Shown in pieces: positions 3,053-5,209 of a stretch of DNA of 64,000 nt. The stretch lies in NCBI RefSeq assembly GCF_045037415.1, contig NZ_CP173440.1. One strand, given 5' to 3'. The first letter of the stretch is position 1, and every line of letters begins with the position of its first letter. The position numbers and the translations under genes are program-made. The DNA is from Escherichia coli (GTDB lineage: Bacteria; Pseudomonadota; Gammaproteobacteria; Enterobacterales; Enterobacteriaceae). Below the pieces are notes generated by a model, which made no database searches, was not told the DNA's origin, and saw only the letters and a program-made list of their open reading frames with translations.

Positions 3053-3601
3053 TTAAATATCCAGGTCTGCTAGAAAGCGTTGTTGAATCTCATTTTTTTG
3101 AATGATGTCCACCAGCTGGCTGGGGTCAACCGTCTTAGCCAGCAGATTTGAGGCATCATCCAGTGCCCAGGCTTTTAACACCATATCGCCTTCAGACATA
3201 AACATTTCCCGTCCATTTTCATGGTTGTACCATTTCTGATTATCATCCAGTGTCACGAGGATATGCGTCGGTTCGTTGCCAGGATCCCCGTTGTCGAAAT
3301 AGTGGATTGCATAGAGGCCCGGTTTTAGACTTTGCTGGGTGAGCTGGAGGTTATTGTTGCTCTGTGCCAGCAGATTTGAGGCATCATCCAGCGCCCAAGC
3401 TTTTAAAAATGTATCGCCTTGGTGTCGCAACATATCGAGGCCTGTTCCCTCTTCACGCCAGAGTTGGTTGGCGTCCTGGGTCGCGAGGGTATAATACAGA
3501 TCACCATCAACATCCCAGCAATCGAAATACCAGACAGCATAGAGACCCGGTTTCAGGTGATTTAAATTCTGTTTCATAATAAGCCTCCGGTGAGCATGCA
3601 C
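3053..3601 (-). CDS. hypothetical protein with internal tandem domain duplication
   Basis: Two ~65-aa halves share KPGLYA(V/I).YFD...LKAWALDDASNLLA. Likely start is MKQNLNHL, about 8 codons inside the ORF. Confidence 0.5.
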   Translation of the reverse strand: MHAHRRLIMKQNLNHLKPGLYAVWYFDCWDVDGDLYYTLATQDANQLWREEGTGLDMLRHQGDTFLKAWALDDASNLLAQSNNNLQLTQQSLKPGLYAIHYFDNGDPGNEPTHILVTLDDNQKWYNHENGREMFMSEGDMVLKAWALDDASNLLAKTVDPSQLVDIIQKNEIQQRFLADLDI

Positions 3602-4030
3602 ACAGACTAAAACCTATAAAAACCCAAGTGGAATTTAATCGAAAAAAAAGAAAACCTAACTAGCAAGTGAAATACAAAGCAGGTGGTTGATACTACCAGA
3701 ATACTATTTTATTACGCTTGTTCAAGACCCAATTTTTAATGTCAGGGAAAAGAAAGAGATTTTTTGGGAGAGATTGCAATTTCTGGATGATAATTAAAAG
3801 CTGTGAAAATCTTGGAGGTGATAAAAGTGTTAATTAAAAACCATCATAAGTCAAAAAAACTGGGTAATGCTGCACATTCAGCTCTTACGAATATACAGCC
3901 TTTCCCTGAATGTTGATTGTTTATTCAACCTGTTTCAGAAGTTTTTCTATTCCTGATTTTTGTACCTGTCAACATTATCAATTCAAGATAAATAATGCTC
4001 AACAGGGTAGTCAGCCTTCACCGGCAAATA

Positions 4031-4318
4031 TTACCAGTCTCCGCCCTCCACTCTTAGGTCCGGTGCCGCATGAGCTAGTAACTCCTGCTGGGGCTGGTCA
4101 TGTTTATTATGACTTTCCCCAAGCAGCAGGCTTAAACTTCCAGACGCCGCATAATACGAAGCATCCGGGAAGTGCTCGCGGACCTCGTCCAGAAGTCGGG
4201 AGAGGTTTTTTGCGGTCCGGTAGAATCGAGAGGCTGCGTTTGGCATAGCTTCGCTTAACAGCTCATGAGCTGTTGTATTTTCACTGGATATTTTTGATAA
4301 AACGTCATCCTGGTCCAT
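4031..4318 (-). CDS. hypothetical small protein
   Basis: 95-aa ORF in the co-oriented array. Confidence 0.3.
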   Translation of the reverse strand: MDQDDVLSKISSENTTAHELLSEAMPNAASRFYRTAKNLSRLLDEVREHFPDASYYAASGSLSLLLGESHNKHDQPQQELLAHAAPDLRVEGGDW

Positions 4319-4598
4319 TTACAGTTCTCCCGTTTGATGGTTGTTAATGATGGCAATAGTGCATCAGTCCTGATCACACCAATCCCAGTTGCCAGGCGAT
4401 GCCCCGAATGGTGTATTCACCGCTCCACCCTGTCACAACATAGAAGCGGTCCCCGTTTTTATTACTGCCCGTTAACTTCATTTTTTTTCCGGTGCTGGCA
4501 AGTAACACTTTCATTGATTTTACAGTGACTTTCATCTTCCACCTAAACATTCAAGACTCTCTGTTTTTCCTTACTGCTTACAAATTCATTGTGGAATA

Positions 4599-4871
4599 TC
4601 AATCCTTGATATTCATGGTGGCAGCGGCTTGTTTCCCCGTGTCGGTAAGCGTGACCGCATAAAACAAGGCGTGTTCTCTCCCCCCCTTATGTACATAGTC
4701 CACCAGCCCGAGACGAAACAGGACAGGAATAGATGGTGCAGAAATATCATCGGTGAATATCCCTGATCCTGGCCTGCATTCCCGCGCCTTTTTTCCGTCA
4801 CCACGGAGTTGATATTTACTCCCCCCGGATAATCGCCGCAGTGTGTAGATCTGTGCGTTAGTAAGCTTCAT
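4599..4871 (-). CDS. hypothetical small protein
   Basis: 90-aa ORF in the co-oriented array. Confidence 0.35.
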   Translation of the reverse strand: MKLTNAQIYTLRRLSGGSKYQLRGDGKKARECRPGSGIFTDDISAPSIPVLFRLGLVDYVHKGGREHALFYAVTLTDTGKQAAATMNIKD

Positions 4872-4954
4872 CTTAAATCCTTGAGATACTGATACTTTTT
4901 AGAACCAAAAAAGAAGCCAGAATTATTATTCTCAATAATTATATATTTCCGACT

Positions 4955-5209
4955 CTACTCAAAGGTAATGACCTCCATAACACAAACATGCTGTGTAGCA
5001 TCAGGAGGAAGTAAGACACGGCAGTTGGGGCAAGGAGTCATGCGCTTGGTTATTATACTAGCTAAATCTGTCATGCGCTTGGTTATACTAGTTAAATCTG
5101 TCATTTTCTCTCGCGAGCCGTCAGAAAGTTCCATTAAAGCTTTTTCAAGTAAATTGCTCATTTTTATATATCCTCTAAGATTTATGTACAATCTGTTGTT
5201 CTCGCCCAA
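4955..5209 (-). CDS. hypothetical small protein with C-terminal Cys cluster; contains a tandem DNA repeat
   Basis: 84-aa ORF. A 30-33 bp tandem repeat at ~5056-5123 encodes the duplicated peptide MTDL(T/A)SI.TKR. C-terminus has CPNC...HVC. Confidence 0.35.
   Translation of the reverse strand: MGENNRLYINLRGYIKMSNLLEKALMELSDGSREKMTDLTSITKRMTDLASIITKRMTPCPNCRVLLPPDATQHVCVMEVITFE

Follow-up and report, generated by a model that had tools for sequence, protein, structure and literature searches.

The window analyzed here, a stretch of 64,000 nucleotides from contig NZ_CP173440.1 (Escherichia coli, assembly GCF_045037415.1), is part of a pNDM-MAR-type IncFIB/IncHI1B conjugative megaplasmid, a common resistance plasmid of Klebsiella, and it harbors two small genes with internal repeats, referred to below as gene A (3053..3577) and gene B (4955..5161), which, like all the window genes of interest, lie on the minus strand. 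The reading that we favor, and that we consider likely, is that gene A is an old and fixed tandem-domain gene, whereas gene B underwent one in-frame duplication that was later contracted at least twice.

In the case of gene B, the original prediction was that an open reading frame (ORF) at 4955-5209 contains a tandem DNA repeat of 30-33 bp, at about positions 5056-5123, which duplicates a peptide motif. The 30/33-bp units and the duplicated motif were confirmed, although their position is about 19 nt lower: Tandem Repeats Finder places the array at 5037-5104 (period 30, 2.2 copies, 89% matches, score 104). The likelier start codon is the ATG at 5161, with AGAGGA (5171-5176) 9 nt upstream, and not the TTG at 5209; the RefSeq plasmids carry a 207-bp coding sequence (CDS) with the start proposed here, and the exact protein is present on at least 1000 contigs. 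The features of the gene are the following:

4955..5161, minus strand: gene B CDS, 207 bp and 68 aa, an ORF whose product is identical to WP_004197220.1; long helix plus putative CCHC knuckle.
5075..5104, minus strand: unit 1, 30 bp, MTDLTSITKR, aa 20-29 (Tandem Repeats Finder, repeat search, and alignments).
5042..5074, minus strand: unit 2, 33 bp, MTDLASIITKR, aa 30-40 (Tandem Repeats Finder, repeat search, and alignments).
5037..5041, minus strand: ATGAC, with which an incomplete third copy begins (end of the Tandem Repeats Finder array, and alignments).
4982..5032, minus strand: putative zinc knuckle C44-x2-C47-x10-H58-x-C60 (residue conservation).

Two changes set unit 2 apart from unit 1, namely a single A/G substitution and an inserted ATA triplet (3 bp), and in the repeat search the two copies are exact over 17 nt and 95% identical over 22 nt. 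The pentanucleotide ATGAC opens each unit, so that microhomology is present on either side of the unit.

The repeat copy number varies between related plasmids, either one or two units being found, so that the invariance that would have contradicted the original prediction is not observed. The census of the alleles is the following:

Two units, 68 aa: about 282 plasmids of PLSDB, with identical unit arrangement.
Unit 1 only (TS-I), 57 aa, 33 bp shorter: 15 plasmids of K. pneumoniae, K. variicola, K. quasipneumoniae, and K. michiganensis, nearly identical in the rest of the sequence.
Unit 2 only (AS-II), 58 aa: at least 24 draft contigs, in 52 blocks of the assembly collection, with the same backbone.
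One ancestral-type unit (MTDLARITQH / MTDLASITKR): a diverged lineage (about 9% in gene B) with about 123 plasmids.

The protein thus exists as alleles of 57 aa (TS-I), 58 aa (AS-II), 57 aa (AS-I type), and 68 aa. The TS-I allele is 100% identical across its 15 plasmids from four Klebsiella species, and in LR890573 the gene lacks 33 bp, the flanks being nearly unchanged. The AS-II single-unit junction has no full-length match in PLSDB, and no three-unit junction occurs among the 72,556 plasmids of that database. Since the array (63 bp) is shorter than a sequencing read, assembly collapse would be an unlikely cause of these differences. According to these data, gene B carries a slippage-prone, in-frame coding tandem repeat of the variable number tandem repeat (VNTR) type, in which the unit length is a multiple of three and the copy number varies.

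The unit-1-only and the unit-2-only alleles have in common 12 upstream and two downstream single-nucleotide polymorphisms (SNPs), distinct from the haplotype of the window. A search with the upstream segment retrieved CP128737.1, which combines the flanking 12-SNP haplotype of the single-unit alleles with the full two-copy allele and has a -129 T variant in common with the unit-2-only allele. The finding of two-copy, unit-1-only, and unit-2-only alleles on one flanking haplotype argues for at least two independent in-frame contractions. The plasmids with the haplotype of the single-unit alleles (L002 and L006-L009) harbor, further upstream, a DUF262/GmrSD_N-domain gene and other neighbors, which replace the 328-aa ORF of the window.

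The following sequence of events can be depicted. An ancestral 30-bp segment, bounded by ATGAC, would have undergone a single in-frame duplication, for which replication slippage is the most likely mechanism; thereafter the two copies would have diverged through the A/G substitution and the ATA insertion, and the two-copy allele would have spread, becoming the common form. Subsequently, it would have contracted at least twice via misalignment of the 17-22-nt identical stretches, one contraction dropping unit 2 (33 bp) and the other dropping unit 1 (30 bp). Each of these changes would alter the predicted helix by 10-11 residues, i.e., about three turns, leaving the frame and the knuckle untouched.

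The same alleles might in principle have arisen in the opposite direction, that is, through an unequal recombination between the TS-I and the AS-II single-copy alleles, with one expansion instead of repeated contractions. The two-copy allele corresponds exactly to TS-I followed by AS-II, and both single-copy alleles are found on one haplotype, which speaks for this scenario. Nevertheless, the single-copy alleles provide only the 5-nt ATGAC for out-of-register pairing, and the identical two-copy arrangement is found on at least four flanking haplotypes (those of the window, of L011, of L013, and of the S-type CP128737.1). The haplotypes of L011 and L013 have, each of them, private synonymous changes inside the units, which suggests that the two-copy state is old and widespread. 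Moreover, the units of the outgroup lineage (AS-I / AR-I type) bear neither derived mark, so that T24 and the extra Ile are most simply explained as changes that followed the duplication. Unequal recombination is therefore less parsimonious than duplication followed by contraction and, in our opinion, improbable.

If the gene B repeat were a contingency locus, devoted to phase or antigenic variation, its changes would occur at high frequency within populations and would be maintained for the variation that they generate. The copy number does differ between close relatives and, of the nine amino-acid differences between the lineages, six cluster in the unit region (codons 18-30), the CCHC residues being invariant; the clustering suggests that the unit segment is the tolerant, variable part of the protein. 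On the other hand, only two copies exist, the unit is long (30/33 bp) and already diverged, and all the changes are in frame and hence do not provide an on/off switch, unlike the short units (about 1-9 nt), many copies, and shifts of reading frame or promoter spacing of a contingency locus. In addition, two copies are shared by 282 plasmids, and 15 plasmids of four species harbor one identical single-unit allele. Overall, the variation is modest (one or two copies, in-frame changes throughout, constancy inside each plasmid lineage), and a pattern of this kind, with alleles common across plasmids, points to rare events inherited clonally, which makes a contingency locus extremely unlikely.

Gene B behaves, instead, as an ordinary in-frame coding minisatellite. 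It resembles the VNTRs of bacterial genes in having in-frame 30/33-bp units that stand in tandem with microhomology at their borders, a copy number that differs among related replicons, and losses in either register; it differs from them in having one or two copies only, already diverged, and a rare, lineage-structured variation. The protein also differs from surface repeat proteins, being tiny, with a cytoplasmic-looking predicted helix and a putative zinc knuckle.

Between the two plasmid lineages, the coding region of gene B is 91% identical, compared to 56% for the upstream DNA, and the indels (30, 33, and 3 bp) are all multiples of three, which supports translation. According to the alternative, the 4955-5161 ORF would not be a genuine gene, and the repeated units would belong to a non-coding DNA element, e.g., direct repeats bound by a protein; this view might appeal to the small size of the protein, to its lack of a family match, and to its high ratio of non-synonymous to synonymous changes. 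However, the ORF, the Shine-Dalgarno sequence, and the CxxC...HxC motif are all kept at that nucleotide identity, whereas the upstream DNA is not; the three indels are independent of each other; and no Rfam match was found. We therefore judge a non-coding nature to be very improbable.

The gene B protein matches no curated family in Pfam, PHROGs, or NCBIfam. AlphaFold2 predicts one long helix (residues 3-40, predicted local distance difference test score, pLDDT, of about 80) followed by a short hairpin with C44-x2-C47; both units fall inside the predicted helix, upstream of the CxxC-x10-HxC motif. The hydrophobic residues of the unit occupy positions 1, 4, and 7 (and 8), and in this model the second unit would extend an amphipathic helix by about three turns. 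As for the motif, C44, C47, H58, and C60 are invariant in a nine-sequence allele alignment covering both plasmid lineages, with the spacing of a CCHC knuckle, and a further database variant of the protein (P0010) has C44F. The CxxC-x10-HxC pattern is reminiscent of CCHC/UBZ-type zinc knuckles and small zinc ribbons, and the best matches are zinc fingers, although none of these matches is significant (TAX1BP1 UBZ domain, hmmsearch E=0.095, Foldseek E=2.2). The automated names given by the sources to this protein or to its relatives are 'RNase P subunit RPR2' and 'anti-sigma-YlaC factor YlaD'. Judging from these sequence features, the knuckle may bind zinc.

Upstream of gene B, the window lineage has an intergenic stretch of about 300 bp (5162-5462) that separates the gene from a 65-aa ORF of the CxxCxGxG type; this spacer has no Rfam match and no promoter above chance. 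In the diverged lineage the two ORFs adjoin and TTG is the start codon of gene B; a database protein, P0022, continues from one of these two ORFs into the other.

With regard to gene A, the original prediction that the product of the 3053-3601 ORF is built from two repeats of about 65 aa was borne out: the two halves align without gaps over 73 residues, with 51% identity (BLASTP E=5e-23). The start had to be corrected to the ATG at 3577, which has GGAGG 6 nt upstream and is likelier than the GTG at 3601; the RefSeq plasmids carry a 525-bp CDS with the start proposed here, and the exact protein occurs on at least 1000 contigs. Its features are the following:

3053..3577, minus strand: gene A CDS, 525 bp and 174 aa, an ORF whose product is identical to WP_004197199.1; two tandem domains plus a C-terminal helix.
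3362..3556, minus strand: repeat/domain 1, aa 8-72 (domain hidden Markov model, HMM, E=3e-25; AlphaFold2 strands 11-19, 26-34, 40-42, and 56-62; block pLDDT 90-95).
3134..3328, minus strand: repeat/domain 2, aa 84-148 (domain HMM E=2e-22; AlphaFold2 strands 87-94, 104-110, 116-118, and 132-138, in the same order; block pLDDT 78-89).
3133..3192 / 3361-3420, minus strand: pair of near-identical 60-nt patches, 87% identity in the repeat search, coding for GDxxLKAWALDDASNLLA.
3065..3124, minus strand: C-terminal helix, aa 152-171, low confidence (AlphaFold2 block pLDDT about 57-63).

The repeats are 65 aa each, with a period of 76 aa (228 nt). At the DNA level they are 62% identical overall, and 13 of their 37 conserved residues are encoded by different codons. 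Strong similarity is confined to the patch (45-60 nt), where the sliding identity peaks at 93%; this may reflect gene conversion or a strong constraint. AlphaFold2, run on a 72-sequence alignment, predicts two small beta domains with a like fold (mean pLDDT 77.9); in the alignment used, MAFFT placed every homologue segment on repeat 1, so that the alignment is deep for repeat 1 only.

A slippage-driven variation of gene A, which had also been proposed, is refuted by the invariance criterion of the original prediction. Among the 301 plasmids with the gene, 298 have at least 80% of it covered, with 95-100% identity, and the listed members of its 233-member protein cluster are all 174 aa long or shorter fragments, most of them labeled partial. 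The sole short version inspected, that of NZ_CP082986.1 (match about 228 bp shorter), had the appearance of a repeat collapse, which was rejected because the cause is an IS5 insertion/truncation. The repeats, with about 50% identity in the protein and the DNA and codon divergence reported above, are too different for gene A to be a slippage substrate. Hence, the proposal that the repeats can expand and contract holds for gene B, where units were apparently lost at least twice on one haplotype, and not for gene A.

Gene A matches 301 of the 422 plasmids with gene B. The diverged lineage of about 123 plasmids (for instance, L003, NZ_CP018714.1) lacks a cassette of about 2.4 kb (window 2222-4330), which comprises a DUF550 dATP/dGTP pyrophosphohydrolase gene (2222-2989), gene A, and a gene for a 95-aa protein (4031-4318).

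A search of 5.8 billion proteins with the full-length gene A protein returned four clusters, with almost no relatives beyond its own plasmid family. By contrast, an exhaustive HMMER scan with a single-repeat profile retrieved 194 cluster representatives, 110 of them at E<=1e-10, with the consensus PGLYAIxYRDNWDGEGDxYHxLAxLxxDGxWxxEESGKELLEYEGDxILKAWPL. In 143 out of the 147 retrieved proteins the module is present once; it is present twice only in the gene A protein and in two fragments of it, the remaining protein (P0065) being a 1290-aa EGF-repeat protein with four partial matches. In the 143 single-copy proteins the position of the module is N-terminal (53), C-terminal (21), or internal (69), which is the signature of a shuffled domain. 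The closest relatives (P0024 and P0025) have the module followed by an AEKRIAELE-type coiled coil matching Ead_Ea22 (PF13935); the genes of P0029 and P0004 are located in early/nin-type regions of lambdoid prophages, and only seven isolated phage genomes encode the module. In the 64-kb window it occurs in gene A only.

No model of Pfam, PHROGs, or NCBIfam covers the module, a Pfam scan of all 72 domain sequences at E<=5 gave no recurrent family, and a sequence search of the solved structures gave nothing significant. The gene A protein itself does not match PF13935 at E<=0.1. As for DUF551, a small beta domain of prophages, none of the 72 domain sequences matches its Pfam model at E<=5, and the structural hint is limited to a non-significant BFVD match (rank 43, E=0.55). 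A search for papers by RefSeq accession found none. Taken together, these data define the gene A module as an autonomous, beta-rich domain of about 65 aa, which is shuffled among accessory proteins of prophages and plasmids.

The age of the arrangement can be appreciated from the comparison of the repeats with a single-domain homologue. Repeats 1 and 2 are identical at 35 out of 65 positions, and each of them matches the single-domain protein P0004 at 37/64 and 36/64 positions, respectively. Thus, the divergence between the two repeats is as large as that from single-domain homologues, which suggests either an old duplication or the accretion of a paralogous module. Gene A represents an ancient, fixed tandem-domain architecture and not a slippage-prone repeat.

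Accretion would mean that domain 2 was gained by recombination with a paralogous module of another element and not by tandem duplication in situ. The fact that the repeats resemble single-domain homologues as much as they resemble each other is compatible with this, as is the shuffling of the module among many architectures, and the 60-nt patch could be a recombination joint or a gene-conversion tract. Conversely, both repeats have the exact 76-aa period, the LKPGLYA start, and the KAWALDDASNLLA end, and the exact KAWALDDASNLLA ending is in none of the printed homologue sequences, no systematic search for this ending having been made. Although the data discriminate only weakly between the two origins, we consider accretion possible but rather unlikely.

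The closest known systems of gene A are the Ead/Ea22-like early proteins of prophages (PF13935). The module forms the N-terminal part of proteins that match PF13935 in the segment following it, and the genes encoding it are located in the accessory regions of lambdoid prophages, where a coiled coil of the Ead/Ea22 type often comes after the module; gene A differs in lacking a PF13935 match and a coiled coil after domain 1, in having the module twice, and in being plasmid-borne. Small beta-barrel domains (SH3-like, Tudor, Sm, and WYL), including tandem Tudor arrangements, are further candidates for a close known system. Lambda Ea22 is described as modular, with a coiled coil between a short N-terminal and a C-terminal domain, and as forming a tetramer (PMC10834534). 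Since Ea22 is both modular and tetrameric via its coiled coil, the tandem copy of gene A might replace oligomerization by a coiled coil: the doubling would give bivalency in a single chain, and the single-domain relatives could obtain it via the coiled coil.

Some aspects weigh against the scenario that we favor, i.e., a fixed gene A and a gene B duplicated once and then contracted. In gene A, the 60-nt near-identical patch could in principle allow a deletion, the lack of collapse was judged from coverage counts in complete plasmids only, and the covalent dimer is an idea that we infer by analogy. In gene B, purifying selection appears weak between the lineages, with nine non-synonymous compared to four synonymous codon differences; its coding status relies on ORF conservation, the ribosome-binding site, the in-frame indels, and the CCHC motif, and should be regarded as probable on these sequence grounds. 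Lastly, the direction of the gene B events is suggested by parsimony on a handful of haplotypes, and recombination between plasmids could mimic it.

Concerning the plasmid context, many complete plasmids of Klebsiella pneumoniae contain the 2.5-kb region with 100% identity. The 427 matching PLSDB records (412 from Klebsiella, 410 conjugative) are of the IncFIB/IncHI1B (pNDM-MAR) type, with MOBH and MPF_F, and have a size of 200-450 kb. In pMR0819-ARMA, genes A and B are located 15-17 kb downstream of repB, within a run of small co-oriented genes that exceeds 20 kb and is mostly hypothetical, with scattered DUF6012-, DUF4942-, DUF957-, and DUF550-type genes; on the other side of repB there are ParAB, genes for Ig-like proteins, a restriction-modification system, and orphan methyltransferases. 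An Rfam scan of positions 2800-5800 gave no match, and the promoter/terminator scan gave no signal above the shuffled expectation.

Insertion sequences (IS) recur in the accessory block of related plasmids (L001, L004, L012, and the match H1): IS5 truncates gene A or lies beside or within gene B, a pair of ISKpn26 copies encloses gene B, and ISSpu2 occurs as well. Furthermore, the window ORFs at 5657-6643 and 8611-9255 (both minus strand) and the homologues P0057 and P0062 contain short mosaic modules common to unrelated proteins, such as a coiled coil with ...RIAELE... and a tail with ...EMIDAG...Y(K/S)AMLAAAPQE at the C-terminus, which speaks for an extensive shuffling of modules among accessory genes of prophages and plasmids. 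The region 8287-8610 (minus strand), corresponding to 11389-11712 of NZ_CP074088.1, contains a 107-aa ORF (MAFISQLGTIPKRSG...) that bears the PLSDB/RGI label 'AAC(3)-Ib/AAC(6')-Ib3 aminoglycoside bifunctional resistance protein, identity 100%'. Its sequence does not look acetyltransferase-like and RefSeq has no CDS at that place; the resistance label may be a database artefact.

As for the possible role of the two genes, our best guess is that their products belong to the co-oriented plasmid block as small accessory factors that bind either proteins or nucleic acids. A bolder joint interpretation can be put forward, to which we attach little credence: the 'DNWDGEGD' module would be an undescribed, widely shuffled ligand-binding domain of accessory proteins from prophages and plasmids, with the gene A protein as a covalent pseudo-dimer; the gene B helix would be under host-driven diversifying selection, as its length changes and clustered substitutions might indicate by comparison with an anti-defense or regulator arms race; and both would be functional establishment factors of the pNDM-MAR megaplasmid family.

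What is new here is an instance of known phenomena together with an unannotated domain family, i.e., ordinary gene evolution and not a switch. The practical value is small, and the understanding of plasmid biology is unchanged unless functions of genes A and B emerge. Nonetheless, the gene B repeat represents a cheap in-frame length marker (57, 58, or 68 aa) that subdivides the globally spread pNDM-MAR-type IncFIB/IncHI1B megaplasmids of Klebsiella, and the gene documents, for a plasmid population in nature, contractions of the slippage type that appear to have occurred more than once. The gene A module, with its about 194 protein clusters among accessory genes of prophages and plasmids, could in turn enter the domain databases.

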